From an uncultured Rubellimicrobium sp. (GTDB lineage Bacteria; Pseudomonadota; Alphaproteobacteria; Rhodobacterales; Rhodobacteraceae), in NCBI GenBank assembly GCA_964540965.1, contig CAZIOT010000009.1, positions 38,642-102,641 on the forward strand: a stretch of 64,000 nucleotides of DNA. The letters run 5' to 3'. Numbering within the stretch: the stretch's first letter is position 1; each line of letters opens with the position of its first letter. This document shows, in pieces, positions 6,621 through 26,546 of this stretch. The position numbers and the translations under genes are program-made. The notes beneath the pieces are model-generated. The model saw only the letters and a program-made list of their open reading frames with translations. It had not been told where the DNA came from and did no database searches.

Positions 6621-7262
6621 TCAGCCTTCGTTGCCAAGCGGCACCAGCGAGCCGATGGCGCGCGGGCCCTCGGTCGGCTGGAGCAGCGGGAATGGGTTCT
6701 CGCGGATCACCGCGACTTCGACGGGGGCCGCCGCCTCGCCCCCGGCGGCAGCGAGAAGCGCATCGAACCTTTCACGGTAGCGGTCGGCATGGACCTCGGT
6801 CCGCGAATGATAGGCGCCGGCGGCAACCGACCAGTCGCCGCTTTCGGCATGAAGCTGCGCCAGGAAACGGGCGGCATAAAGTGCGTTCTGTTCGGGGTCG
6901 AGCATGGCGTCGAGCGAAGCGAAACCCTCGCCATGCCAGCGGTAGTTCAACTGGAAACAGCCAAGGTCAAAGCTGGTGCGCCCGGCGGCCAGCGCGCCTT
7001 CGGCATACGTCTGCGCCTCGGCCCGGCTGTCGAACCAGGCGCCGTCGCCCGAATCGTTGATCGTCCAGGGCCAGGGCTGGATGCTTCCGCCGCGGTTACG
7101 GCCGGTTTCAGTCTGGCTGATGGCCAGAAGCACCGCATAGGGCACGCCGGTCCGTTCGGCGGCAAGGCGCGCGGCGTCAAGGCAAAGCGTTTCCGCCCCG
7201 GCAAGGGCAGGGCTAGCGGCGAGTGTCGCAAGGACGAGGGGAATCAGTCGGGTCATGCGCAT
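6621..7262 (-). CDS. Secreted lytic transglycosylase (SLT domain), flagellar SltF-like
   Basis: Signal peptide and an SLT catalytic region (LLAISQTETG). Embedded in the flagellar operon 4 nt upstream of flhA. Confidence 0.8.
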   Translation of the reverse strand: MRMTRLIPLVLATLAASPALAGAETLCLDAARLAAERTGVPYAVLLAISQTETGRNRGGSIQPWPWTINDSGDGAWFDSRAEAQTYAEGALAAGRTSFDLGCFQLNYRWHGEGFASLDAMLDPEQNALYAARFLAQLHAESGDWSVAAGAYHSRTEVHADRYRERFDALLAAAGGEAAAPVEVAVIRENPFPLLQPTEGPRAIGSLVPLGNEG

Positions 7263-7318: not shown

Positions 7319-9454
7319 TCATGGTGCGGCAAAGCGCGACAGCAGATCCTGCGCCAGCGACCGGGTCCGCTCGGCTTCGTCCAGCAGGGCGGATCGGGCG
7401 GCGAGCGGCGTGGTGTCGGGCAAGGGGGCAGGCGGGGTTTCCATCGCTACCGCGGCATCCCGAAGCAGGGGGTCGGCGCTGCGTTCCAGGGCTGCCCAGT
7501 CACCCGATGCCCAGGCGGCATCGTCCGCGACCTCGGTCTCGCCGGACAGGCGCGCAAGGCCGGTCGCGGCGCGCAACGCCTCGGACCTCGGGTCCGAGAG
7601 GCCGATCAGTTCGGCCTCGACCTGATCGCTGCGGCCCAGGGCGGCGGCGGCCTCGGCCCGCAGATAGCGGCGTTCGGCAAGTGCCGGGCCGGCGGCGGTC
7701 GGGTCCAGAAGGTCAAGCGCGCGGTCGGGAAAGCCGAGGGCGATCAGCCGCGCGGCGGCCAGGTTGACGGTTTCGGGCGCCAGATCGGTGCGCAGGGGCT
7801 GATAGGCGATGTCGAGAAAGGTCGCGTCATCGCCATGATCGGTGAGTTCGGCCAGCACCTGCGACAGCGCCGGGCCCTGTCGCATCTCGGGCAGGGTCGC
7901 GGCGCTTGCCAGCGCCTCGCCATAGCGGCCAAGCGCGGCAAGCAGGCGGGTCTCGGCCCCGGCGAGATCGGCTTCCTCGGCCCGGCCGCGGTATTCGAAG
8001 CGGAGCGCCCGCAGGAGGTCGAGCGTGCCGGCATCGGGAACCTGGCCCTGGGCGAGCGCGACATCGACCATGGCGATCGCTGCAGCCGGGGAAAGCTCGG
8101 GGTCCTCGCTGGCAAGGCTTTCGAGGTGGTCGAGCGCGGCAAGCGGTTCGTTGGCGGCAAGCGCGACTTCGGTGCGGGCAAGATCGGCGGCGGCGGGCTG
8201 ATCGGTGCTGCTGGTGACGGCGTGGTCGATCAGGTCCGCAGCGCCGAGCACATCGCCAGCGGCGCCGAAGATCGGCGCAAGGCGCAGGCCGATGGCGCCG
8301 CGCAAGGAGGGTGGCAACAGGCGCCAGGCGGCCTCGATCGCGGTGCGCTCTACCTCGCCGGTGCCGTCAAGGCTGTCGCGGGCCAGCGCGCGCCACAGCG
8401 CCACGGCGCCGGTGCAACCGGCCTGATCGGCCAGCGCCGCCGGCGTCACCGGCTCGCCCTCGACCAGAAGGGCGAGCAGGCGCAGCAGGTCGCGTTCCTG
8501 GCTTTGCCCGCCGTCGAGATCAAGGACCTGCCGCGCCTCGCGACCAAAGCCGAAGGCGATCTGGACCCTTGCCAGATGTTCGACGGCGCCGGGGGCGGTA
8601 CGGTCGAGCTCGTTGGTCAGGGCCAGCCGGGCGGCGCCCAGTTCGGTGGCATAGTCGCCGGTGCCGGTCCAGCCGGCCAGATCGAACCTGTCGTCGGGCA
8701 GGCAACTGCGGCCGCTTTCGGATAGGCCAGCGGGGGCGGTCTGGTCGGCGCCGGTGCGGGTCAGGATGCCGGGGCGGCCCTCGCCGACAGGGATCGCGGC
8801 GGCGGGCGTGTCGCCGGGCACCACCGGCGGCTGCCCTGCCGCATCGTCGCGCGGATCGGTGACGGCAAGGTCGAGCAGGCCCTGCGCGGCGCCGCGGGCA
8901 ATGCCTTCGGCCATGGCGCGTTCGATGGCGGCGGCGCGGTCGCGCGGTTCGGCTTCCACCGCGGGTGGACTGTCGGCGGGCAAGGCGGGGACGGCGAAGG
9001 GCAGGGGCAGGTCGCGCGGGCGGGCCGTGAACAGCGGGATCGCGCTGTCCGCGGCGGGCGGCCGGGGCGCGTCGCCATCCAACCGCACCTCGAAGGGCGA
9101 GGCGGGGTCGGGCGGCCCTTCGATCACGTCGAGGATCAGCCAGCCGCGCTGCCAGGCAAAGGCCTGGAGATGGCAGTCGCAGCCCAGGCGGATGTCTAGC
9201 CGGCCCGGCTCTGCCGTCACCTCTGCGATGCGGCTGCGCGGGATCATCTCGAACACGCTGCCGATGGCAAAGCCGTCGTCGCGGTCGAGGATCAGCGCAT
9301 AGCCGTCGGCGGTGCGGCCGGCCCGCCAGCCGGTGCCTTCACCGGCGGCGACGGACAGCCGGCTGAAGCCGGCGTGTTCGCCCGACTGCACTGCGATCTC
9401 CTGCGCGGTCGCCGCGGTGGCAAGCAGCGACAGAAGGATGGCAAACCGGATCAT
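7319..9454 (-). CDS. Large secreted Ala/Pro-rich protein of unknown function, translationally coupled to motA (possible MotC-like stator partner)
   Basis: 711 aa with signal peptide MIRFAILLSLLATAATAQE, an N-terminal beta-rich domain, Pro-rich linkers and a long helical-repeat-like C-terminal region. ATGA overlap with the motA stop (9451-9454). Confidence 0.7.
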   Translation of the reverse strand: MIRFAILLSLLATAATAQEIAVQSGEHAGFSRLSVAAGEGTGWRAGRTADGYALILDRDDGFAIGSVFEMIPRSRIAEVTAEPGRLDIRLGCDCHLQAFAWQRGWLILDVIEGPPDPASPFEVRLDGDAPRPPAADSAIPLFTARPRDLPLPFAVPALPADSPPAVEAEPRDRAAAIERAMAEGIARGAAQGLLDLAVTDPRDDAAGQPPVVPGDTPAAAIPVGEGRPGILTRTGADQTAPAGLSESGRSCLPDDRFDLAGWTGTGDYATELGAARLALTNELDRTAPGAVEHLARVQIAFGFGREARQVLDLDGGQSQERDLLRLLALLVEGEPVTPAALADQAGCTGAVALWRALARDSLDGTGEVERTAIEAAWRLLPPSLRGAIGLRLAPIFGAAGDVLGAADLIDHAVTSSTDQPAAADLARTEVALAANEPLAALDHLESLASEDPELSPAAAIAMVDVALAQGQVPDAGTLDLLRALRFEYRGRAEEADLAGAETRLLAALGRYGEALASAATLPEMRQGPALSQVLAELTDHGDDATFLDIAYQPLRTDLAPETVNLAAARLIALGFPDRALDLLDPTAAGPALAERRYLRAEAAAALGRSDQVEAELIGLSDPRSEALRAATGLARLSGETEVADDAAWASGDWAALERSADPLLRDAAVAMETPPAPLPDTTPLAARSALLDEAERTRSLAQDLLSRFAAP

Positions 9455-10317
9455 GCCGCCTCCTTCGTCGCCTTCAACGCCTCTTCCAGTTCGGTAAAGC
9501 TTGGCCGGTTGTGGCCTGGCGTGTTCTGGCGTCCGACCTCGATGCAGATCTGCGGCGGGTGCTGGTAGAGGTTGGCGACCAGCACCTCGCGGATCAGGCG
9601 GTAGAAATGGATCTCTTCGTCCAGCACCGCTTTCAGTTTCGAGGCGAAGGGGCCGACCATGCCATAGGCCAGAAACACGCCCAGGAATGTGCCGACCAGC
9701 GCGCCACCGATCAGCTTGCCCAGCACCTCGGGCGGCTGGTCGATGGACCCCATGGTCTTGATGACGCCCAGCACGGCGGCAACGATGCCCAGGGCCGGCA
9801 GGCCGTCGGCGATGGTCTGCAGCGCATGGGGCGAATGCAGCGCGTGCTGCTGATGCGCCTCGATGCGCTTTTCCAGCACCTCCTCGACCTGATGGGGGTC
9901 GTCGTAATTCATCGAGGCCGAGCGCAGGGTGTCGCAGATCAGGTCGACCGCCTCGTGATCCTTCTGGATTTTCGGATACTTGCCGAAGATGGGCGATTCG
10001 CCCGGCTTCTCGATGTGTTCTTCAAGAGCGACGGGATTCGACCGGGCCAGCCGGATCAATTCGAACAGAAGGCACAAGAGGTCGCGATAATCGCCGTGCT
10101 TCCATTTCGCGCCCTTGAACACCTTGCCCATGTCCTTGAGCGTGTGCTTGATCGCCGCCCCGTCGTTCGAGATGACAAAGGCGCCGATGGCGGCGCCGCC
10201 GATCATCATCATCTCGAACGGCAGCGATTTCATGATGATGGTCAGCTTGCCCCCGGCAAGGATATAGCCGCCGAAAACCATCGCGAAGATGATGACGATG
10301 CCGATGATCCCGATCAT
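9451..10317 (-). CDS. motA: Flagellar stator protein MotA
   Basis: 288 aa with MotA/TolQ/ExbB channel topology and typical N-terminus MIGIIGIVIIFAMVFGGYILAGG. Confidence 0.9.
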   Translation of the reverse strand: MIGIIGIVIIFAMVFGGYILAGGKLTIIMKSLPFEMMMIGGAAIGAFVISNDGAAIKHTLKDMGKVFKGAKWKHGDYRDLLCLLFELIRLARSNPVALEEHIEKPGESPIFGKYPKIQKDHEAVDLICDTLRSASMNYDDPHQVEEVLEKRIEAHQQHALHSPHALQTIADGLPALGIVAAVLGVIKTMGSIDQPPEVLGKLIGGALVGTFLGVFLAYGMVGPFASKLKAVLDEEIHFYRLIREVLVANLYQHPPQICIEVGRQNTPGHNRPSFTELEEALKATKEAA

Positions 10318-10383: not shown

Positions 10384-10956
10384 TCATTCGGTGGGGGCAC
10401 CGGTGTTGCGGCCGGCAAGGATGACGCTGATCGAATAGGCGCGCTCGGGCGTCAGCCCGGCCATGATCGCGGCGGCGGCAGCGGGCTGCATCATGCCAAG
10501 GAATCCGGCGCTGAAGGCGGGATCCATGGTTTCGAACAGCACCGCGGCATCCTGCGGCTTCATGTTTTCATAGACCGCGGTCAGCCGGTCGAGATCGTCC
10601 TGCGCGGCGCTGTCGGCCAGTGCAATCATCTCGGCAAGGGATTGTTCGGCGCTGGCAAGTTCCGCAATCTTTTCCTCGATCTGCGCCGTGGCCACCGCGA
10701 CGGCCTGTTCTCGGTCGGCCAGGGCGCGCTCGCGCTCGGCCAGCCGCGATTCGCGGGTGCGGAACGCGTCCAGCAGGGCGCCGGTGCCCTGTTCGGCAAC
10801 GCAGGTGCCGGCGACCTCGGCCGTTTCGGCCGGCGGTTCGGTGCCGACGGCGAAGGCCATGTCGGCGTGCCCGCCCAGCCGCACCACGCCCGAGCCGAAC
10901 AGGAGGATGGCAAGCCAGCCCAACACGCCGGGCCTGCGGCGATTGCGCACGGCCAT
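10384..10956 (-). CDS. MotE/FlbB-like protein (MgtE_N-like domain)
   Basis: N-terminal anchor, a coiled coil, then the motif YENMKPQDAAVLFETMDP..AAAIMAGLTP typical of MotE/FlbB family proteins. Confidence 0.6.
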   Translation of the reverse strand: MAVRNRRRPGVLGWLAILLFGSGVVRLGGHADMAFAVGTEPPAETAEVAGTCVAEQGTGALLDAFRTRESRLAERERALADREQAVAVATAQIEEKIAELASAEQSLAEMIALADSAAQDDLDRLTAVYENMKPQDAAVLFETMDPAFSAGFLGMMQPAAAAAIMAGLTPERAYSISVILAGRNTGAPTE

Positions 10957-11303
10957 CAGCGCCGCCCCACCATTTCGGGATGGCGCACGAAGACCGAGGA
11001 GGCCGGCCGTGGCGCCGGCTCTGGCAGGTCGTGCAGCGAGGCGAGCAGCAGTTCCAGCCGGCCCGCCGCGGCCTCGGCCCGGTCGGACACGGCAGCAAGC
11101 TGCGCCGCGGCCTCGCCGGCGCGGGTTTCGGCGCCCTGCAGCATCCGCGACAGGTCGTCGACCTGGGCCGACAGGACGGCGACGGCGCCGCCGACGCCCT
11201 TCTCGAGATCGGTGAACCGCCGCAGGCGGCGGGCCAGGACGATGCAGTACAGGCCCGCGCCCATCGCGCCGGCGGCCATCAGGATATCGGCAATCGCATT
11301 CAT
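10956..11303 (-). CDS. Small membrane-anchored coiled-coil protein, unknown function
   Basis: 115 aa with one N-terminal TM helix followed by coiled coil. Its stop overlaps the next start (TGATG). Confidence 0.55.
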   Translation of the reverse strand: MNAIADILMAAGAMGAGLYCIVLARRLRRFTDLEKGVGGAVAVLSAQVDDLSRMLQGAETRAGEAAAQLAAVSDRAEAAAGRLELLLASLHDLPEPAPRPASSVFVRHPEMVGRR

Positions 11304-11312
11304 CGCGGCCCC

Positions 11313-11846
11313 TCAGTTCAGCACGAATTCGGTGACAAGCAGGTCGCGCACCCGGCCCTCGCCGGTGACGACCTGGATGCGGCGCAGAAGCTGCGACCGG
11401 ATCAGGGTCAGGATCATCTGATCCTCGAAATCCTCGGGCTCGACCGCGCGCAGATAGCTGTTCATCACATCGGCGATGCGCGGTTTCACCGCTTCGACCG
11501 CCGCTGCCTGACCCTCCACGACCTCGAGCGAGGCGGCGAATCGCAGGAACTGCCGGCCGGTCGAGCGCGGCATGTTCACGATCAGCGGGTCGAGCGCGAC
11601 ATAGCTGACCGGGGCGACGGCGGGGGCGGCATGGGCGTCGGTCGCAGTCTCGGGCGCTGATTCGTGGGTGGTGCCGCCGCCACCCAGTAGACCCAGGCGC
11701 ACAGCCATGAACCCGCCCCCCGCCCCGGCGATGGCCAGCACAAGCCCCAGGATCAGCGGCAGTTTCGAACGTTTCTTCGGTGGCACATCGGCCGGATCGG
11801 CAGTCGCGGTCATCGGGTTCATCCCTTCTGGAATTTCACCCGTCAT
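11313..11846 (-). CDS. fliL: Flagellar basal-body-associated protein FliL (paralog 2)
   Basis: 177 aa with a single TM helix and a FliL C-domain (YVALDPLIVNM..FLRFAASLEV..IADVMNSYL..VTEFVLN). Confidence 0.75.
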   Translation of the reverse strand: MTGEIPEGMNPMTATADPADVPPKKRSKLPLILGLVLAIAGAGGGFMAVRLGLLGGGGTTHESAPETATDAHAAPAVAPVSYVALDPLIVNMPRSTGRQFLRFAASLEVVEGQAAAVEAVKPRIADVMNSYLRAVEPEDFEDQMILTLIRSQLLRRIQVVTGEGRVRDLLVTEFVLN

Positions 11847-11859
11847 AGACCGGCAGGGA

Positions 11860-11874
11860 CTAACCGATTGTTAA
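11860..11874. promoter_or_regulatory. Candidate CtrA box (cTAAC-N5-GTTAA, equivalent to xTAA-N7-TTAA) in the fliL/fliF divergent promoter region
   Basis: The sequence CTAACCGATTGTTAA lies between the divergent starts at 11846 and 11934. It matches the TTAA-N7-TTAA(C) consensus except for one base. Confidence 0.45.
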
Positions 11875-11933
11875 GGCTGTCCGGTTCATGGTGCCCCCGT
11901 CGGGAGAAACCCGGCCAGCAAGGATCCTGCCAC

Positions 11934-13469
11934 ATGACCAATCTTCTGAACGTCTGGTCGACCCTTGGCGCCCGGCGGCGGCTTGTCGTCATCGGGGCGG
12001 CCCTCGCGGTCTTTGCCGCGGTGCTGGGCCTGACGCGGGGCGCCGGCGCGCGCGACATGGCGCTGCTCTATGCCGGGCTGGATCCGGGCGCCGCCGGCGG
12101 TGTCATCACCGCGCTTGACCAGCGCGGCGTGGTCTATGAGGTGCGTGGCGACGCGATCTGGGTCACCACCGCCGACCGCGATCTGCTGCGGTTGTCGCTG
12201 GCCGGCGAAGGGCTGCCGGAAAGCTCGTCGCAGGGCTATGAGCTGCTTGATTCGCTTAGCGGATTTGGCACCACATCGCAGATGTTCGACGCCGCCTACT
12301 GGCGCGCGAAGGAAGGCGAGCTGGCACGGACCATCCTGTCGGTGCCCGGGGTGCGCACCGCCCGCGTCCATATCTCGGCCGCGCCGGACCGGCCGTTTGC
12401 CCGCGACGCCCGCGCCACCGCCGCCGTCACGATCGGCACCGGCGGCACCGCGCTCAGCGCCGATCAGGCGCGGGCGCTGCGCTATCTGGTCGCCTCGGCG
12501 GTCAGCGGCCTGCGGCCCGAGGATGTGGCGGTGATCGACGCCGAAACCGGCCTGGTCCCCGCCGACGATCCGGCCGGCGCCGGCGATTCGCGGGCCGAGG
12601 AATTGCGCCATCGGGCGACCCGCCTGATCGAGGCGCGGGTCGGGCCGGGCAATGCCGTGGTCGAGGTCGCGGTCGAAACCGTCACCGAATCGGAATCCGT
12701 GGTCGAACGCCGCATCGACCCCGACAGCCGCATCGCGATTTCCACCGAGGTGCAGGAAAACGCCCGCTCGGCGCAGAATGCCGCGGCCGGTGCCGTCACC
12801 GTCGCCTCGAACCTGCCGGACGGAGAGGCGGGCGCGCAGGGCGGCGGGTCACAATCGACCGACAGCGAATCGCGGACGCTGACCAACTATGACCTGTCGG
12901 AAACCAGCCGCGAGGTGGTGCGTGCCCCCGGTGCGGTGCGGCGGCTTACCGTGGCCGTGCTGGTCAACGACCTGACGACGACCGCCGCCGACGGCAGCGT
13001 CACCACCACGCCGCGCAGCGAGGAAGAGATGACGGCCCTGCGCGATCTTGTCGCCTCGGCCGTCGGTTTCGACGCCGCCCGCGGCGACGAGATCACCATC
13101 CGCTCGATGGCGTTCGAGCCGGTGGCAGAGGGCGGCACCGAAGGCGTCGCCGGGGCCGGGTTTCTTGACGTGATGGGGCTGGTGCGGCTTGCGGTGCTGG
13201 CGGCGGTGGCGCTGATCCTTGGCCTGTTCGTGCTGCGGCCGATCCTGACCTCGCGCCGCGCCGCCCTGACCGATGACAGCACCGCCCTGCTGCCGGCCGC
13301 CCCGGTCGGCTTGCCAGCGCCGTTGCCCGACACCGCCCGCGTGATGCCCGAGGCCGAGATCATCGACCCGGTGACCCGTCTGCGCCGCCTGATCGAGGAG
13401 CGGCAGGACGAGACGATCCAGATCCTGCAGACCTGGATCGAGGAACCGGCCCGGCGTGAGCGTGCATGA
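11934..13469 (+). CDS. fliF: Flagellar MS-ring protein FliF
   Basis: Starts MTNLLNVWSTLGARRRL followed by a TM helix. YscJ/FliF family sequence with a C-terminal TM. ATG at 11934 is preferred over the TTG at 11868. Confidence 0.9.
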   Translation: MTNLLNVWSTLGARRRLVVIGAALAVFAAVLGLTRGAGARDMALLYAGLDPGAAGGVITALDQRGVVYEVRGDAIWVTTADRDLLRLSLAGEGLPESSSQGYELLDSLSGFGTTSQMFDAAYWRAKEGELARTILSVPGVRTARVHISAAPDRPFARDARATAAVTIGTGGTALSADQARALRYLVASAVSGLRPEDVAVIDAETGLVPADDPAGAGDSRAEELRHRATRLIEARVGPGNAVVEVAVETVTESESVVERRIDPDSRIAISTEVQENARSAQNAAAGAVTVASNLPDGEAGAQGGGSQSTDSESRTLTNYDLSETSREVVRAPGAVRRLTVAVLVNDLTTTAADGSVTTTPRSEEEMTALRDLVASAVGFDAARGDEITIRSMAFEPVAEGGTEGVAGAGFLDVMGLVRLAVLAAVALILGLFVLRPILTSRRAALTDDSTALLPAAPVGLPAPLPDTARVMPEAEIIDPVTRLRRLIEERQDETIQILQTWIEEPARRERA

Positions 13470-20493: not shown

Positions 20494-20556
20494 GGGGGGC
20501 CTTTCGGGCTGCGGATGAAGCAGCCCTCCTATAGCGCGCGGTGTCTTAAGGACGCG

Positions 20557-21411
20557 CTAACGCTGGCGCTCGGTCCGCAGGAGCGTGATCTCGAACCTGT
20601 CGTTGCGTTCGGACAGCGGGTTGTCGGTGGCCGGACTCGAGTCGCCATGCCCAGTCAGGCGGCGCAGGCGGGCAAGGTCAAACCCGCCGTCCTGCATCAG
20701 CCGCCGCAGCACCCCGGCACGGGCCGAGGACAGATCCCATACCGGGCTGTCGGCCAGCACCACCGGCTGCGAGGGCACATAGGCGTCAATGGCCAATGGG
20801 TTTGTGACGATGCTGGCCATGGTGGCAATGGTTTCGACGATTTCCCGGGTGACGGGCAGCGGTTCGGCGGTGGTTCCGTCAAAGATCGGGGCATCGGGCA
20901 GGGCAAAGACCTCGATCACCAGCCCCTCGTCCGTCAGCCGGGTGACGACATGGCGCAACGCCATGTCCGACAGCAGGCTTTCGCCGCCGCGACCCAGAAG
21001 CGCGTCCTCGACCTGTTCCAGCGTGGCGGTTTCGACCGCCGCCGCGGCGGCCGAGCCGTCGGCGTCGTCGAATTGCGGAAAGGTCGATTGACCGGCGATG
21101 CCCAGAGCCAGCCCCTCTCCGGTGTTGGCCATCGGGTCAAGAGAGGAGGGGCTGTCGCCGCCGAACATGCCGTCCGAGCCGCCCGAGGTGCGGCTGATCG
21201 GCGCCACCGGCGCAAAGTAATCGGCGATTCCCTTGCGTTGCTGTTCCGTGGTCGCGTTCAGCAGCCACATCAGCATGAAGAATGCCATCATCGCGGTCAC
21301 GAAATCGGCGTAGGCGACCTTCCATGCCCCGCCGTGGTGACCGCCGCCGGCGATCACCTTCTTGCGCTTGATGATGACAGGCGCATTTCCGGCCTGTGCC
21401 ATCTGTCCCAT
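20557..21411 (-). CDS. motB: Flagellar stator protein MotB
   Basis: The N-terminal plug/TM segment AWKVAYADFVTAMMAFFMLMWLL contains the conserved Asp. OmpA-like C-terminal region. Confidence 0.85.
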   Translation of the reverse strand: MGQMAQAGNAPVIIKRKKVIAGGGHHGGAWKVAYADFVTAMMAFFMLMWLLNATTEQQRKGIADYFAPVAPISRTSGGSDGMFGGDSPSSLDPMANTGEGLALGIAGQSTFPQFDDADGSAAAAAVETATLEQVEDALLGRGGESLLSDMALRHVVTRLTDEGLVIEVFALPDAPIFDGTTAEPLPVTREIVETIATMASIVTNPLAIDAYVPSQPVVLADSPVWDLSSARAGVLRRLMQDGGFDLARLRRLTGHGDSSPATDNPLSERNDRFEITLLRTERQR

Positions 21412-21478
21412 CCCTAACTCACCCGCAATCGGGATAAGGGGTCAGGGGTTAACCCGGCCTTGACGATTCAAATCGAGG

Positions 21479-22243
21479 TCAAAGGCCACGCCGGCGCCAT
21501 ATTTCGTCGGGGCCGCAGAATTCGACCAGATCATAGCCGGCATGGGTCATGATGCGCGCGATCTCTGGCCCGCCGGTGTTGTTCTCGATCGCCCAGACGG
21601 CGACGTTGTGGCGGTCAAAGGGAAAGGCGGACAGCGCCGCGGCCTCGCCGCCCTCGATGTCGAGCGAGATGAAGTCGGGGTCGGGGATACCGGCATCGGC
21701 CAGGATGCCGGCGATGGTGCGGGTCTGGACGCGAAAGCTGCGCTCCTTGTGCCGCGGATCGGCGCGCACCCGGTCGAGCAGGCCGGGGTCATAGCTGGCC
21801 GACAGCCCGCTCATCTGCGTGTAACCTTCGCTGATCTCGATGAAATCGGCGTCGCCGTCGACGGCGGCGACGGCAAGGCCCAGACAGGGGCAGCGGCGCA
21901 CCATCTTGGCGCGCGCCAGCTGCGCGGGAACGGGTTCGACAAGGACGCCGGTCCAGCCGCGCCAGAATTCGAAGAACAGCGTGTTCGACCCGGTGGTGCC
22001 GTCATAGCCGCCGATATCGACAAAGGTGCCGCCGCGCCTGCCGCCGAGGATACGGTCGACGACCACATCCTGACCGGCCTGGCTGGAATAGGGATAGCCC
22101 TGCGTCAGCATGTGGCGCAGTTCGTGGATGCGGCGGTTGATCTGGCCGCGGCGACGCGAACGGTCGCCCTCGAGCAGCCGCGCCTGTTCGGCCAGGATCT
22201 CCTGCGCGGTGCGGCGCAGGTCGGCGATGCGGTCATCGGCCAT
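21479..22243 (-). CDS. FkbM-family SAM-dependent methyltransferase
   Basis: Motif FVDIGGYDGTTGSNTLFFE and overall FkbM-like layout. ATG at 22243 is preferred over the upstream in-frame start at 22291. Confidence 0.75.
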   Translation of the reverse strand: MADDRIADLRRTAQEILAEQARLLEGDRSRRRGQINRRIHELRHMLTQGYPYSSQAGQDVVVDRILGGRRGGTFVDIGGYDGTTGSNTLFFEFWRGWTGVLVEPVPAQLARAKMVRRCPCLGLAVAAVDGDADFIEISEGYTQMSGLSASYDPGLLDRVRADPRHKERSFRVQTRTIAGILADAGIPDPDFISLDIEGGEAAALSAFPFDRHNVAVWAIENNTGGPEIARIMTHAGYDLVEFCGPDEIWRRRGL

Positions 22244-22649
22244 TGCCGCCCTCCTTGCCCAGATAGTCGGCGTAGGACTTTTCCTCGACAATGAGCGAGC
22301 CGAGATGCAGGTTGATCGCCTTCTTTACCGCGGCGCGTTCGTCGTTGACCCGATAGACCGCGCGGGCAAGGCCGATGAAGGCCGGGCCGAAATCGCCGGC
22401 GCGTTCGCAATCGCGGATGTCGTCCTCGATCACCCAGAGGCGGGCGTTGATCCCGTAAAGCGCGTCCCACAGTTCCGAAAGCCGGTCCGAGGGCGGCAGG
22501 TGGGCGTCGGCGGTGGCCAGCAGCACTGCCTGTTCGTGACGGACATTGGCCAGTTTTGCGGCATCGGCGATCCGTTCGGCCTTGAGCCGCAGGATCGTCA
22601 GCTTGTCGATCAGCTCGCCGGGCGAGGTCGGCACCAGAATGTCAGTCAT
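22233..22649 (-). CDS. Small helical protein, DUF6165-like (recognised from memory, unverified)
   Basis: 138 aa starting MTDILVPTSPGELIDKLTILRLK. ATGA overlap with the upstream TPR-glycosyltransferase gene. Confidence 0.6.
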   Translation of the reverse strand: MTDILVPTSPGELIDKLTILRLKAERIADAAKLANVRHEQAVLLATADAHLPPSDRLSELWDALYGINARLWVIEDDIRDCERAGDFGPAFIGLARAVYRVNDERAAVKKAINLHLGSLIVEEKSYADYLGKEGGNGR

Positions 22650-24010
22650 CTGTCCCCCTTCGGCGCCGCAAGGGCGGCAAGGTCGCTGCGCACCCGTTCC
22701 AGCACGCCCGGCCAGTCGCGCGGCCGGTCCTGCCGGTAAAGGCGCATCGAAGGATACCACGGACTGCTCTCGCGTTCGAGTTGCCAGAGCCAGAACGCAT
22801 CCCAGTGCAAGAGCGTCCAGGTCGGCCGGCCCAGCGAGCCGGCGATATGGCAGGTGGCGGTGCAGGAGGTGACGATCAGGTCCATTTCCTGCATCATCGC
22901 GGCGCAATCGGCGAAATCGCGGTCGGTCGAGGCGGCATCGACGATCAGCGCGCTGCTGCCATCGGCCTTGAAGGCCTCAAGCTCGGGCCCCTTGTACAGC
23001 GAGAACATCTGCACGCCGGGCACGTCGAGCAGGCGGTGCAGCAGCGTGTGGCTGAACGAGCGGAAGGCGTTTGCGCGGTAGGTGACAGAGCCGCACCAGA
23101 CCACGCCGACCTTGAATTTGCCCTTGTGAGGCGCAGTGATGGCGCGGGCACGGGCGCGGCTGTCCTCGGGCACGGTCAGGCGGGTGGGGGGCGGGACCGC
23201 GGCATCGGCATCGAAATGCAGCGGCGGCAGGTCCATGATGTTGGTCCAGACATCATAGGGTTCGTCGGGTTGCAGGCCGACCCAATCGGCGCCCTCGACT
23301 CCGGCCATCAGCCGCAGAAGCGGCTTTTCGCACAGAAGCAGCACCCGTTTCGGGTTGAACCGACGCAGCACCGGCAGGAAACGGGCAAAGGTGACGGCAT
23401 CGCCAAAGCCCTGTTCGGGCAGGACAAGGATGGTCTTGCCGGTCAGGTCGCCGCCGTCCCATTTCGGCGTCACCATCTGCCGCGGCTTGAGCTCTCCGGT
23501 CAGCCAGCGGGCGTCGTAGTGACGGAAACCGTCGGTATAGTTCCCGGCGGCCAGTTCCGTCAGCGCAAGCTGGATCGTCAGTTCGTGAAAGCCGGGATGG
23601 GCGGCGCCATGGCGCTTCAGGACGGCGATCGATTCGTCATGGCGGCCAAGGGCGCGCAGGCTCTTGCCCTCCATCGCCTTGGCCATCGCATCGCCGGGTT
23701 CCAGCGCGATCAGCCGGCGCCGCAATTCAAGCGAGCGTTCGTTTTCGCCCACATCGTTCAGGATATTGGCGAAATTGTTCAGCGTGCCGCGGTTGTCCGG
23801 GTCAAGGGCATAGGCGCGTTCCTGTGCGGCGATGGCAAGGTCGTGGCGCGACTGGACGCGGAACAGCACGCCAAGGTTCGACCAGATCGCCCCGTCCCCG
23901 GGCACTTCGGCCAGGTATTCGGCATAGGCCGCCAGCGCCTCGGTCAGCTTGCCGGCGCGGTGGGCGCCGGTCGCGCGGTCGCGCAGCGCGTTCAGCCGGG
24001 CAGAGGTCAT
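22646..24010 (-). CDS. TPR-repeat protein fused to a GT9/heptosyltransferase-like GT-B domain
   Basis: The N-terminal ~190 aa are TPR-like (AIWSNLGVLF.., AYALDPDN..). The C-terminal domain has the GT9-type motif ILVLPEQGFGDAVTFARFLPVL. Confidence 0.75.
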   Translation of the reverse strand: MTSARLNALRDRATGAHRAGKLTEALAAYAEYLAEVPGDGAIWSNLGVLFRVQSRHDLAIAAQERAYALDPDNRGTLNNFANILNDVGENERSLELRRRLIALEPGDAMAKAMEGKSLRALGRHDESIAVLKRHGAAHPGFHELTIQLALTELAAGNYTDGFRHYDARWLTGELKPRQMVTPKWDGGDLTGKTILVLPEQGFGDAVTFARFLPVLRRFNPKRVLLLCEKPLLRLMAGVEGADWVGLQPDEPYDVWTNIMDLPPLHFDADAAVPPPTRLTVPEDSRARARAITAPHKGKFKVGVVWCGSVTYRANAFRSFSHTLLHRLLDVPGVQMFSLYKGPELEAFKADGSSALIVDAASTDRDFADCAAMMQEMDLIVTSCTATCHIAGSLGRPTWTLLHWDAFWLWQLERESSPWYPSMRLYRQDRPRDWPGVLERVRSDLAALAAPKGDR

Positions 24011-24807
24011 CCCTGGTCCCCGCCGTGGCGGCGGACCGGACGCAGCAGTGTCTCGGGGCGGCGCGCCTCGGCCGCCTCGAACAGGGAAAAGGTCTGGTTG
24101 ACGTAGTTCACCGCGCCGGAAATCAGGTCAAAGTATTCGGCGACCTCCTTGGTGATCTCGGTTTCGACCATGGCGATGCTGCGGTCCTGCGGCGTCGTCT
24201 CGAACGTGGCGTAGAACAGCGGATCGCCGCGGTTGATGACGATGGGCTTGGTGGTGTCATGCCATTCGAAGGCCCACATCAAGGGCCGCGGCCAGACATT
24301 GATCGGAAAGCGCCCGCCAAAGATCGTGCCCGGCAGCGGGTTGCGCTGGTAGTGCATGAAGGGCGCAACCTGGCTCATGTAGCAGGGTTCGTCGGCGACG
24401 AAGATGTAGGGCAGCGCCAGCTGGATTGTCGGCACATCGGGGTGGCGCCATTCCACCTCGTTCGTGACATGCAGCTTTTCGCCCAGTTTCGAGGCGCGGA
24501 TCGTGCTTGCCTCGCCGGCCAGGTTACGAAGGCCCGGCTTGCCCTTTTCATCACGGAAAAAGCCGATGTTGAGGTCGAACGGGCAGCGGATGACGAAATA
24601 GCGCGCCTCGAGGCTGATCACCGCCGGGCAGCGGCTGGCCGATTTGGCATGGCGACGGTTCAGGTCCACCGAGCGCACCCGTTCCGGCGGGAAATAGATG
24701 ATGCCGGTCTTGGGTTCGGTCAGGCACCAGCCCACGGTCAGCGGGCCCGAAGGCGCGGCCTGCGGCCCGGTCTGTTCGAAGGTCACCTCGAATCTCATCG
24801 CTTTCAC
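24007..24807 (-). CDS. Conserved-looking hypothetical protein (266 aa), no recognisable motif
   Basis: Codon usage resembles its neighbours. ATGA overlap with the downstream gene and a 4-nt gap from the upstream gene. Confidence 0.6.
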   Translation of the reverse strand: MKAMRFEVTFEQTGPQAAPSGPLTVGWCLTEPKTGIIYFPPERVRSVDLNRRHAKSASRCPAVISLEARYFVIRCPFDLNIGFFRDEKGKPGLRNLAGEASTIRASKLGEKLHVTNEVEWRHPDVPTIQLALPYIFVADEPCYMSQVAPFMHYQRNPLPGTIFGGRFPINVWPRPLMWAFEWHDTTKPIVINRGDPLFYATFETTPQDRSIAMVETEITKEVAEYFDLISGAVNYVNQTFSLFEAAEARRPETLLRPVRRHGGDQG

Positions 24808-24811
24808 TCCC

Positions 24812-26488
24812 TCAAGGACGCGGCGGTTCGGGCGCCAGCCTAAGAATGTCGAATTTGGCCAGTTGCAGCGCGGCGGCCATCACCGCCTCGGGGCTGGCGC
24901 CGCCGGCGGCCGCCAGATCGCGCAGGCTGACCGGGCCTTTCGCCTGCACGGCTGCGGCAAGCTGCAACAGGGCGTCGGCGGTGGCGTGCTGGCGACGATA
25001 CAGCGCCTGTCCCGACAGCCGGGACAGAAGCGTGATCCGCTCTGCATCGGCGGGGCTGCCGGGGTGCAGGATGGTGTCGGGGCCGAAAACCCTTGTCGGA
25101 TAGTCGCGGTAAAGGTCGAAGGGATCGACCTCAAGCGGGCTGATCGCACCGGGGCCAAGCACCGGGGTCGAGACGGTGCTGCGCGCCCGAAGCGCGGCAA
25201 GCTCCTGCGCCAGCGCCAGATAATGCGGGATCACGGCGGCCCAGTCATAGGCGTGCCTGGCATGGCCCATCGCCGCCTGCCCCATGCGGCGGCGCAGGTC
25301 GTCATTGCCGATCAGCGCGGCAAAGGCGGCGGCATAGGCGGGCACGTCGATCTGGATCTGCGCCTGCACCAGCGTCAGATACTGGAGATAGCTGTCGGTA
25401 TCGTCGGCAAAGCGGCGGGCGAGCGTGGCGCCGCTGCCGGGCGGAGCCATGCTGGTGGCGACGCGGAGCCCGGCGGTGCCATGCGGCACGGTATCGCGAA
25501 AACCGTCCCAGTCGGGCATCACCACCGGCAGGCCGGCGGCCATCGCCTCGACCGGGACAAGGCCGAAGGTTTCCTGGATGGAGTCGGCGGGCAGGGTGAA
25601 TATGTCGGCCGCCGACCAGATGTTGCGGCGCAGGTCGGGGTCGCGGCCATCAAGCAGCGCGAATTTCACCCGCTTGCACAGGGCGGCGCCGGCCTCGCGG
25701 TGCAGCGCCTCTTCCTCGGCCCGGCTGGCCCAGCCGGCCATCCACAGATGCACGTCGCGCCCGGTCTTTTCGGCGGCCTGTTCCAGCGCCAGCATCAGGG
25801 GCACCGGATTGGCCTTTTCCACCACCGACAGCCGGCCCATGGTCAGGACCACCACCGCATCCGGGGCGACGCCCTGCGCCGCGCGCAGCCTTTCGCGGGC
25901 GCCGGGCTGGGGGGCGAAATCGGCGGTCTCGATGCCAAGCGGGATCACCGGCAGTTGCGGCAAGGGCATCCGCGTGGCGCCGAAACGGTGACGAAAGAAC
26001 TCGGTCTCAAGCTCGAACTGCCGCTTCACCACCGATTGCACCGCGCGCGAGGTGCAGATGATCGCGTCCCAGGGCTCGACCGGCTGCGACATCAGCCCGT
26101 GCAGGTTTTCGATGATGCGTTTCGTCGAGACGGTATGGGTAAGGCCGACCAGCGAACAGCGGAAAGCGCCGTATCGCAAGCGGCGCCAGGCGGCGGACTG
26201 AAAGCCGGGGGTGGGAAAGAACACCGTGCCGGCGGCGGTGAAATCGGACGATCCGCGCAATTCGGTGACGGTGATCGGACGGGTATCGCCCAATGCGCGG
26301 ACGCGCGCCTCGAATTCCTTGGCCGCGCCGGCGCTTTCCACAACGGCGCGGACGCTGTCGCCGCCGGCGTGGCGGAGGAAACCCTTGAGAAAGCTTTCCC
26401 CGGCCGAGCGTCGGCCGACCAGATCGCGGCCCTGGCCTTCTACCTGATCGGGATGGAAATAGATCGCGGGAACGGGAATATCCGGCAT
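24812..26488 (-). CDS. GT4/GT1-type glycosyltransferase with an extended N-terminal domain
   Basis: E-x7-E motif ETFGLVPVEAMAAGLPVV and a GT-B C-terminal half. ATG at 26488 (MPDIPVPAIYF) is preferred over 26545. Confidence 0.75.
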   Translation of the reverse strand: MPDIPVPAIYFHPDQVEGQGRDLVGRRSAGESFLKGFLRHAGGDSVRAVVESAGAAKEFEARVRALGDTRPITVTELRGSSDFTAAGTVFFPTPGFQSAAWRRLRYGAFRCSLVGLTHTVSTKRIIENLHGLMSQPVEPWDAIICTSRAVQSVVKRQFELETEFFRHRFGATRMPLPQLPVIPLGIETADFAPQPGARERLRAAQGVAPDAVVVLTMGRLSVVEKANPVPLMLALEQAAEKTGRDVHLWMAGWASRAEEEALHREAGAALCKRVKFALLDGRDPDLRRNIWSAADIFTLPADSIQETFGLVPVEAMAAGLPVVMPDWDGFRDTVPHGTAGLRVATSMAPPGSGATLARRFADDTDSYLQYLTLVQAQIQIDVPAYAAAFAALIGNDDLRRRMGQAAMGHARHAYDWAAVIPHYLALAQELAALRARSTVSTPVLGPGAISPLEVDPFDLYRDYPTRVFGPDTILHPGSPADAERITLLSRLSGQALYRRQHATADALLQLAAAVQAKGPVSLRDLAAAGGASPEAVMAAALQLAKFDILRLAPEPPRP

Positions 26489-26502
26489 CGTCCGGCCTGA
26501 AA

Positions 26503-26536
26503 TTGCATCTGGCGGCACTAAAGCCGCCAAATGCAG
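26503..26536 (-). terminator. Stem-loop (14-nt arms, 2 mismatches, 6-nt loop) after the Gfo oxidoreductase gene
   Basis: TTGCATCTGGCGGC-actaaa-GCCGCCAAATGCAG, followed on the minus strand by a short T-containing tract. Confidence 0.4.
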
Positions 26537-26546
26537 GGCGCGCAAG

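Follow-up and report, generated by a model that had tools for sequence, protein, structure and literature searches.

The window analysed here, a 64,000-nt stretch of contig CAZIOT010000009.1 from an uncultured Rubellimicrobium sp., has a GC content of 68% and carries a flagellar gene cluster in the order fliL, a pflI-like gene, motE, motA, a gene for a 711-aa protein, sltF, flhA, fliR and flhB, an arrangement typical of Rhodobacterales. The gene for the 711-aa protein (7319..9454, ATG start; hereafter motK-like) is the last motility-specific gene of the fliL, pflI-like, motE, motA, motK operon and, like the fliL, pflI-like, motE, motA, sltF-like and motB genes described below, is read from the minus strand. 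For comparison, we used a set of related loci, namely the best 80 of 484 genome stretches in which tblastn found a homologue at this position. The operon begins with fliL (11313..11846; Pfam FliL, E 2e-14), followed by a gene for a small membrane protein of 115 aa with an N-terminal hydrophobic helix (10956..11303), which by position is the equivalent of pflI or CP2 (PMC10954123, PMC12363192) and is conserved in 75 of the best 80 of 484 loci with a median identity of 60%. The next gene (10384..10956) encodes a MotE/FlbB/FlgY-like candidate E-ring protein that matched NCBIfam collar_FlbB (E 1.3e-5) weakly and below the cutoff, and Pfam MgtE_N weakly as well (E 0.0014), in line with the MotE/FlbB-like gene that an earlier sequence-only reading had placed here. 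[quoted passage not shown] The stator subunit gene motA (9451..10317) was identified with confidence (TIGR03818 MotA1, 374 bits against a cutoff of 303.8; Pfam MotA_N and MotA_ExbB).

Downstream of the motK-like gene lies an sltF-like gene for an SLT-domain lytic transglycosylase (6621..7262; Pfam SLT, E 8.7e-6); sltF occupies the matching position in Phaeobacter inhibens (PMC12363192). The gene for the second stator subunit and expected binding partner, motB, is found elsewhere in the window (20557..21411; Pfam MotB_plug, E 2.4e-19, plus an OmpA-like domain). A 454-aa TPR protein is also encoded in the window, among glycosyltransferase genes (22646-24010). Upstream of the operon, in the divergent intergenic region between fliL and fliF, a scan allowing one mismatch identified a CtrA-box-like sequence, CTAA-N7-TTAA (11860..11874, plus strand), one of three such sites in the window against 0.35 expected; the exact consensus TTAA-N7-TTAA has no site in the window. 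By analogy with Cereibacter sphaeroides (PMC10954123), this element may place the operon under CtrA control.

The motK-like reading frame has the properties of a genuine gene. Its GC3 of 0.84 is of coding type, and the existence of homologues, the GC3 and a confidently predicted fold together rule out an artefactual reading frame of a high-GC genome. The protein is rich in Ala (20%), Leu (13.5%) and Pro (7.5%), and its mature form has a computed mass of about 72 kDa and a pI of 4.4. On the minus strand (...AAGGAGGCGGCATGATCC...), the ATG start codon (9454-9452) is overlapped by the TGA stop codon of motA (9453-9451), forming an ATGA (9451..9454), and a Shine-Dalgarno-like GGAGG (9459..9463) lies within the 3' end of motA, 4 nt 5' of the ATG. 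Among the best 80 of 484 loci, the stop and start codons overlap by 4 nt in 65 and by 1 nt in 12, giving an overlap in 77 of 80, and the remaining three have a gap of 0-1 nt; an (A/G)GGA(G/T)G-like motif precedes the start in most of the 80. Since the same arrangement recurs across these related loci, the overlap is not a matter of chance.

The N-terminus of the protein, MIRFAILLSLLATAATA|QE, has a basic n-region, a hydrophobic core of 14 residues and an A-x-A site, from which, together with a hydrophobicity heuristic, a Sec-type signal peptide of residues 1-17 with cleavage at ATA|QE is predicted (9404..9454). The N-terminus is the sole strongly hydrophobic 19-aa window of the protein, and a simple heuristic identified a signal-peptide-like N-terminus in 78 of the best 80 of 484 homologues. 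The motK-like protein is thus predicted to be periplasmic.

The signal peptide is followed in the AlphaFold2 model (mean pLDDT 81.6 for the whole protein) by an AMIN-like beta sandwich of eight main strands (residues 19-112; 9119..9400), which was modelled with a pLDDT of 91-95 in the full protein and 95.6 as an isolated domain. A Foldseek search with this domain returned the AMIN domain of E. coli AmiC (4bin; TM 0.62, rmsd 3.5 A) at rank 1 and PilQ (4aqz/4av2), including its B2 domain, at ranks 2-3. The modelled fold is a clear match to AMIN, with TM-scores of 0.58-0.62 and an rmsd of 3.5-4.5 A to the AmiC (4BIN) and PilQ (4AQZ, 4AV2) domains, although sequence identity to them is only 12-15%. 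At the sequence level, the window protein's own N-terminal domain did not match the Pfam AMIN models (PF11741, PF24837) at E<=0.1; among 40 family N-termini, 22 matched the AMIN-like model PF24837 at that threshold (best E 2.2e-5) and three matched PF11741. Residues G25, H27, F30, R32, W43, R75, C92, C94 and D109 of the domain are invariant in the family alignment.

The remainder of the protein consists of two linkers, an isolated helix and a long helical region. Linker 1 (residues 113-169, 26% Pro; 8948..9118) and the Pro/Gly/Ala-rich linker 2 (residues 197-250, 15% Pro; 8705..8866) were assigned as disordered from composition and pLDDT, which falls below 50 at residues 128-155, 160-169 and 197-244. 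Between them lies a conserved segment (residues 170-196; 8867..8947) with the motif ...ARGAAQGLLDL, modelled as a helix at residues 170-190 and with an invariant G192 in its conserved block. A TPR-like alpha-solenoid of about 30 helices (residues 251-708; 7331..8704) completes the protein, as judged from DSSP, pLDDT and Foldseek; residues 254-708 are all-helical, with a pLDDT mostly above 90. The solenoid carries a GFGxEA motif (302-307) and invariant C251, W262, C347 and W354, and family members match TPR_19 weakly. The sole outcome of scanning the protein itself against Pfam and NCBIfam was a match to HTH_15 below the cutoff, which we rejected as spurious because it is located in one helix of the solenoid. 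Overall, the features that the sequence-only reading had described, namely a 711-aa frame starting across the motA stop codon, a cleavable-looking signal peptide, an AMIN-like N-terminal beta domain of about 110 aa, and Pro-rich linkers followed by some 450 aa of Ala/Leu-rich helical-repeat-like sequence, all agree with the sequence, the related loci and the model.

The homologue lies directly 3' of motA in all 80 of the best 80 of 484 loci, which share the order fliL, the gene for the 115-aa protein, motE, motA, the motK-like gene, in some cases slt, and flhA; an slt gene was detected 3' of the homologue in only 47 of the 80 (tblastn E<=1e-5). These loci include Paracoccaceae (Tabrizicola, Gemmobacter, Rhodobacter sp. 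SW2, Rhodovulum) and Roseobacteraceae (Octadecabacter, Sulfitobacter, Roseovarius, Sedimentitalea), and the listed homologues were found at E values of 1e-50 to 1e-118, those of Paracoccaceae, at the same position, at 1e-50 to 1e-58. No member outside a flagellar cluster or in a non-flagellated Rhodobacterales genome occurs among the 80 loci. Median identity to the window protein across these loci is 32% for the motK-like protein and 78% for MotA; the family evolves fast.

Searched with a family profile, the protein set yielded 4764 representatives of 50%-identity clusters at E<=1e-3, and nearly all of the best 150 of these matches are full-length; a profile of the N-terminal domain retrieved short fragments only. 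In a plasmid collection, a single partial match was found, in a flagellar cluster of Paroceanicella, and both this homologue and a distant one from Acetobacteraceae are encoded in flagellar operons adjoining motE; the Acetobacteraceae operons have no adjacent motA. Azospirillum also has a homologue. Family members are named 'hypothetical protein' throughout in their sources, except for one UniRef 'HEAT repeat protein', and ten family clusters looked up by name gave no informative name. Cereibacter proteins were absent from the returns of the single-sequence (23), full-length-profile (27) and N-domain-profile (15) searches, and a Cereibacter locus was absent from the best 80 of 484; the word prefilter of the protein searches copes badly with an Ala-rich, fast-evolving family.

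Comparison with the literature indicates that the 711-aa protein is very probably an orthologue of MotK (CP4 in Phaeobacter), which is accessory to the archetypal flagellum of Rhodobacterales. MotK (RSWS8N_12065 / RSP_1318, UniProt Q3IY86) was named in 2024 as a periplasmic stator partner of the Fla2 flagellum of C. sphaeroides; it is required for rotation and has MotE and MotB2 as binding partners (PMC10954123). The archetypal flagellum bears the name Fla2 in C. sphaeroides, and the roseobacter literature terms it 'fla1-type'. Published MotK has a signal peptide, eight beta strands with the AMIN domain of AmiC and then PilQ as best structural matches, disordered regions rich in Pro and a C-terminal part resembling TPR (PMC10954123), and the architecture of the window protein agrees with this description point by point. 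In addition, the two genes occupy the same operon slot (fliL, pflI, motE, motA, motK), and the MotK study itself counts proteins of Paracoccaceae and Roseobacteraceae as homologues (PMC10954123). MotK has 652 aa and the window protein 711 aa, with a longer helical region, and identity between them is probably only about 30%, as between other genera. The assignment as an orthologue is based on synteny, architecture and homology across the family, MotK having been compared by its published description; since the family evolves fast (median identity 32%), functional details may differ from those of MotK.

The same slot, between motA and sltF/flhA of a fla1-type cluster, is taken in P. inhibens by CP4 (PGA1_c35690), which lies between motA and sltF and was found in 2025 to be required for motility: six CP4 transposon mutants were immotile and still secreted FliC, FlgE and FlgK (PMC12363192). 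CP4 was reported as a conserved hypothetical protein without a link to MotK (PMC12363192), and the likeness drawn here is one of position; a homologue was found in the relative Sedimentitalea (tblastn E 1e-51). The sequence-only reading had proposed a periplasmic protein, analogous to MotC, that works with MotE and the stator, which accords with the published MotK data as well as with the operon slot and architecture. Its further suggestion of a new periplasmic stator component did not hold, given that MotK had been named in 2024 (PMC10954123) and that CP4 had proved indispensable for motility in a study of 2025 (PMC12363192); the window protein belongs to a family already known and is an ordinary representative of it. 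Reviews tie MotK to MotC, PflA and FlcB (PMC13023049, PMC12054838).

A large periplasmic protein of Caulobacter crescentus, CC_2058, which adjoins the motE homologue CC_2059, is also similar by description, having an AMIN-like N-terminus and a reported Mot- phenotype (PMC10954123, PMC13023049); BLAST from MotK does not find it (PMC10954123). Among known structures, Foldseek matches of the whole model comprised TPR/PPR superhelices and chain 9hmf_K, presumably PflA of Campylobacter jejuni (the chain has 773 residues, and PflA is modelled from residue 16 in PMC12222027). This chain ranked third (E 9e-5), and its alignment of 834 columns was the longest among the 50 matches listed; the whole-model TM-score is low (0.17), as disordered linkers connect the domains. 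PflA of C. jejuni and Helicobacter pylori shows the same order of N-terminal beta sandwich, long unstructured linker and TPR superhelix (PMC12222027, PMC12054838), and it is a periplasmic protein that works with a MotE/FlgY-type E-ring protein and is needed to hold the stators (PMC12222027, PMC12054838), as may by analogy be the case here. The PflA beta sandwich binds PflB (PMC12222027), and the genes assigned here do not include a PflB-like partner. [quoted passage not shown] Thus, of the parallel with Campylobacter that the earlier reading had drawn, the likeness to a TPR-rich stator scaffold stands, with PflA rather than PflB as the closer protein by architecture.

These likenesses are not accompanied by membership of any of the families concerned at the sequence level: the comparison with MotC, PflA/PflB and FlgT that the same reading had suggested gave no match through Pfam, NCBIfam or a profile run against the PDB. 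NCBIfam includes a MotC model. No NCBIfam or Pfam flagellar family was matched by the 711-aa protein at E<=0.01 or by 21 family members at E<=1; the single sequence found nothing meaningful in the PDB, and the family profile, searched against all PDB chain sequences, retrieved generic PPR, alpha-repeat and TPR proteins only, without PflA. Rhizobial MotC is smaller and is encoded after motB, and the gene here follows motA, so that gene context also speaks against the protein being a MotC. MotC of Sinorhizobium meliloti is a periplasmic, TPR-rich partner of MotE needed for rotation and is, for that reason, a functional analogue of the motK-like protein. Membership of the family of rhizobial MotC, a protein that MotE stabilises in Sinorhizobium, would be compatible with the MotE-like gene two genes upstream, with the mainly TPR nature of MotC and its binding of MotE, and with reviews proposing a very distant homology between MotC and MotK (PMC13023049). 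We nevertheless regard it as very unlikely, given the failure of the protein (E<=0.01) and of 21 family members (even at E<=1) to match a flagellar family, the absence from MotC of the AMIN domain present here (PMC13023049) and the reported absence of MotC from C. sphaeroides and its relatives (PMC10954123).

The neighbouring SLT-domain transglycosylase gene and the AMIN-like fold, which in the model suggests peptidoglycan binding, could instead point to an assembly factor that acts with SltF in letting the rod through the peptidoglycan, rather than to a stator partner, and the CP4 mutant does have a reduced set of secreted flagellar proteins (PMC12363192). Yet this mutant still secretes FliC, FlgE and FlgK (PMC12363192), C. 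sphaeroides motK mutants still assemble filaments and export hook protein in normal amounts, and the polar localisation of MotK-sfGFP requires MotA2 and MotB2 (PMC10954123). In addition, slt follows in only 47 of the best 80 of 484 loci (tblastn E<=1e-5), whereas motA is adjacent in all 80, and a primary role in assembly is therefore highly improbable. The constancy of motA bears equally on the least probable alternative, that this is a general cell-envelope AMIN/TPR protein, of the kind involved in cell division or type IV pili or resembling FimV, that lies in the flagellar cluster by accident. In its favour, AmiC and PilQ are the proteins for which the AMIN fold is best known, a TPR solenoid is a generic type of scaffold, and the profile gave a weak match to a FimV fragment (E 0.12). 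The sequence-only reading had likewise considered a protein lacking synteny with motA elsewhere, but among the best 80 of 484 loci the gene directly follows motA in all 80, with overlapping codons in 77; the plasmid-borne Paroceanicella and the Acetobacteraceae homologues also lie in flagellar operons beside motE, and mutation of the counterparts abolishes motility (PMC10954123, PMC12363192).

Taking the protein as a MotK orthologue, published work on MotK suggests how it might act. The motK-like protein would be exported to the periplasm, where its helical domain would bind the MotE dimer and the periplasmic part of MotB, and the AMIN-like domain would serve as a putative anchor to peptidoglycan or to another scaffold protein. 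MotA/MotB stator units would thereby be recruited around the rotor, or kept open and active, and loss of the gene would be expected to leave cells flagellated and paralysed. In Campylobacter and Helicobacter, the PflA spoke joins the FlgY E-ring and the stator ring, and by architecture the protein is its counterpart. We tentatively propose, as a possibility that we hold to be less likely than not, that the widespread Rhodobacterales fla1-type motor has a Campylobacter-like periplasmic scaffold in which MotK-type proteins form radial spokes running from a MotE E-ring to the stator ring, anchored directly to peptidoglycan through the AMIN-like domain and lacking a PflB rim. If so, the very fast divergence of the protein (median identity 32%, MotA 78%) would be a sign that stator number or radius has been tuned separately in each lineage. 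The idea of a spoke has already been put forward in published reviews; what would be new is a design anchored to peptidoglycan and free of PflB, together with the widening of the family to operons of Acetobacteraceae without an adjacent motA.

As to the biology of MotK itself, our analysis adds nothing beyond the publications of 2024-2026, and its practical value lies in annotation, no Pfam or NCBIfam model capturing the family. The name 'MotK-like' would correct many genome annotations and would mark those alphaproteobacterial motors that probably have an E-ring and a spoke-type stator scaffold.

The 711-aa protein encoded at 7319-9454 on the minus strand is very probably the orthologue, in this Rubellimicrobium-related Rhodobacterales bacterium, of MotK, the periplasmic stator partner of Cereibacter sphaeroides Fla2, and of CP4, its counterpart in Phaeobacter inhibens, because it shares operon slot, export signal, AMIN-like domain, linkers and solenoid with MotK (compared by its published description) and forms one sequence family with Paracoccaceae and Roseobacteraceae proteins encoded in the same slot. 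The gene sits within a complete flagellar cluster, whose minus-strand run reads fliL (11313-11846), a 115-aa membrane protein gene (10956-11303), a MotE/FlbB-like gene (10384-10956), motA (TIGR03818 score 374 bits, cutoff 304), the 711-aa gene, one for an SLT-domain transglycosylase (6621-7262), flhA, fliR and flhB. On the plus strand, fliF, a weak FliH-like gene, fliN and fliP are oriented away from fliL, and further along the window lie flgI, flgL, flgK, flgE and motB (20557-21411). This gene order is that of the Rhodobacterales 'fla1-type' cluster as listed for P. inhibens (CP2, CP3, motA, CP4, sltF, flhA, fliR, flhB; PMC12363192), a type named Fla2 in C. sphaeroides. A second, divergent FliL-like gene (1736-2293; Pfam FliL E 1.2e-5) follows flgH, as P. 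inhibens also has a second fliL at the corresponding position (PMC12363192), and a 130-aa ORF without a family match (2294-2686) separates it from flhB. Beyond motB, 21479-26545 encodes an FkbM-type methyltransferase, a 454-aa TPR protein (22646-24010), a 266-aa protein without a family match and a 577-aa GT4 glycosyltransferase, and may be an island for flagellin glycosylation or polysaccharides.

Three one-mismatch CtrA boxes (TTAA-N7-TTAA; 0.35 expected) occur in the window, at 11860-11874, 20546-20560 and 21449-21463, and all are in flagellar intergenic regions (fliL/fliF, motB/flgE and 5' of motB, respectively); the exact consensus is absent from the 64 kb. By analogy with C. sphaeroides Fla2, these sites are consistent with control by CtrA. 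The longest fliF ORF (11868-13469, plus strand) begins at a TTG just 21 nt away from where fliL starts, and would cover the CtrA-like box; a start at the ATG at 11935 (ATGACCAATCTT...) is more plausible.

The 711-aa ORF has an ATG start, preceded at 4 nt by GGAGG, and a coding-type GC3 of 0.84 in a window of 68% GC. Its ATG overlaps the TGA of motA in the sequence ATGA (9451-9454; minus strand ...AAGGAGGCGGCATGATCC...). The same overlap of 4 nt is found in 65 of 80 related loci, with 1 nt in another 12, indicating that coupling is a conserved property of the family and not a local accident; the overlap suggests that the two proteins are translated in a coupled way and made in balanced amounts. 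The N-terminus (MIRFAILLSLLATAATA|QE), in which charge, a hydrophobic core and an A-x-A site follow the pattern of a Sec signal peptide, is the sole strongly hydrophobic stretch of the protein, which is rich in Ala (20%), Leu (13.5%) and Pro (7.5%), the last concentrated at residues 113-169 (26%) and 197-250 (15%). All features described in the sequence-only reading were found where it had placed them. The protein contains no lysine, perhaps just a consequence of the genome's 68% GC; Arg makes up 8.4%, and the mature pI is about 4.4. Exactly four Cys are present, all invariant in the 21-sequence family alignment (the CxC pair at 92 and 94 in the beta sandwich, and C251 and C347 in the solenoid), and four is also the median count in 80 homologues; from sequence, they may form periplasmic disulfides.

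AlphaFold2 with the same alignment gave a model of mean pLDDT 81.6 in which a signal-peptide helix is followed by an eight-strand beta sandwich (residues 19-112, pLDDT 91-95), Pro-rich disorder, a conserved single helix (170-190), a second disordered stretch and an uninterrupted helical solenoid (254-708, pLDDT mostly >90). Modelled alone (pLDDT 95.6), the N-terminal domain had as its best PDB match E. coli AmiC (4BIN) via the AMIN domain (TM 0.62, rmsd 3.5 Å), followed by the PilQ B2/AMIN domain, bearing out the resemblance to AMIN-type domains noted in the sequence-only reading. The domain itself did not match the Pfam AMIN models; among 40 family N-termini, PF24837 'AMIN-like' was matched by 22, at a best E of 2.2e-5, and PF11741 by 3. 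In Foldseek searches of the PDB, the whole model resembled TPR and PPR superhelices; ranked third, and aligned over 834 columns, more than any other of the 50 matches listed, was chain K (773 residues) of 9HMF, a structure of the periplasmic scaffold in the motor of Campylobacter jejuni. We infer from PMC12222027 that this chain is PflA residues 16-788: PflA was modelled there from residue 16 and described as a beta sandwich at the N-terminus, joined through an unstructured linker to a TPR spoke.

The description of MotK by Velez-Gonzalez et al. in 2024 (PMC10954123) parallels these features. MotK is 652 aa long (the window protein 711). A signal peptide precedes eight beta strands at its N-terminus, which were best modelled structurally on the AmiC AMIN domain and then PilQ, the ranking obtained here; the rest consists of disordered regions rich in Pro and a TPR-like part. 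Its gene is the last of the fliL2, pflI, motE, motA2, motK operon, 3' of a CtrA site. Mutants in motK or motE have flagella and are paralysed; MotK and MotE are both periplasmic, MotK binds MotE and MotB2, MotE is unstable without MotK, and MotK-sfGFP foci at the flagellated pole require MotA2 and MotB2. The authors noted that Paracoccaceae and Roseobacteraceae have proteins like it, encoded in the same arrangement (PMC10954123). For CP4, six immotile, complementable transposon mutants still secrete FliC, FlgE and FlgK (PMC12363192). MotK, MotC, PflA, FlcB and CC_2058 have been proposed as related TPR partners of E-ring MotE/FlgY/FlbB (PMC12054838, PMC13023049, PMC11870540).

A word-indexed search with the 711-aa protein returned 23 full-length or partial relatives, three at 83% identity and the others at ≤43%. 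A full HMMER scan with their alignment matched, at E≤1e-3, 4764 cluster representatives (50% identity), of which 2877 reached E≤1e-30; among the best 150 listed, almost every match was full-length. In a scan of genomes, 484 stretches were found to encode a relative. Most of the best 80 carry the name Rhodobacterales, Paracoccaceae or Roseobacteraceae, with a few MAGs labelled just Alphaproteobacteria or Pseudomonadota; a Rubellimicrobium MAG is the closest. The wider order fliL > 115-aa gene > motE > motA > homologue > (slt) > flhA is retained in these loci. Across them no other protein of the operon evolves nearly as fast as the MotK-like one: its median identity to the window protein is 32%, whereas MotA stands at 78%, FlhA at 72%, the 115-aa protein at 60%, and MotE and FliL at about 49%.

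A role as a non-flagellar envelope component is contradicted by the position of the homologue, directly 3' of motA on the same strand in all 80 loci fetched. Two more loci, both in flagellar surroundings, also contradict that role. On the Paroceanicella profunda plasmid pD4M1D (NZ_CP040822.1, 5900-8551), within a flagellar cluster, an 883-aa 'hypothetical protein' gene overlaps the motA stop by 4 nt and is followed by rod genes, not sltF and flhA; its product aligns only with query residues 251-358 (41% identity). In an Acetobacteraceae MAG (DASSRN010000325.1, 3920-6955), a 1011-aa protein distantly homologous to the helical domain (349 columns aligned by hhalign at 98% probability, E 1.5e-13, GFGxEA motif included) is encoded after fliL, fliM, DUF6468, an MgtE_N/motE-like gene, cheY and cheZ, with no motA adjoining, so the range of the family exceeds Rhodobacterales. 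That motK mutants are flagellated contradicts an assembly function shared with SltF, and membership of the MotC family fails on the AMIN-like domain and on the lack of a sequence match in NCBIfam and Pfam. Comparison with NCBIfam and Pfam models, and of the family profile with PDB sequences, found no sequence-level link to MotC, PflA/B or FlgT, and the likeness to PflA is confined to architecture and fold class.

By analogy with the experimental results in C. sphaeroides and with the structure of PflA, the MotK-like protein would be exported to the periplasm, where its solenoid would bind the MotE dimer and the periplasmic region of MotB; the flexibly tethered AMIN-like domain could anchor the complex to peptidoglycan or another scaffold protein, and stator units might thereby be recruited or activated. 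The sequence-only reading, which proposed a MotC analogue or a new stator cage component, was essentially right about a stator-partner function, given the match to MotK in slot and architecture, but not about novelty: the protein is a new member, as yet without a name, of the MotK family reported in 2024. The 711-aa protein itself matches no Pfam or NCBIfam family, and the source names seen for family members are 'hypothetical protein', bar one UniRef 'HEAT repeat protein'. Since the family is large, its names are uninformative and no curated model covers it, the main value of the identification is for annotation.
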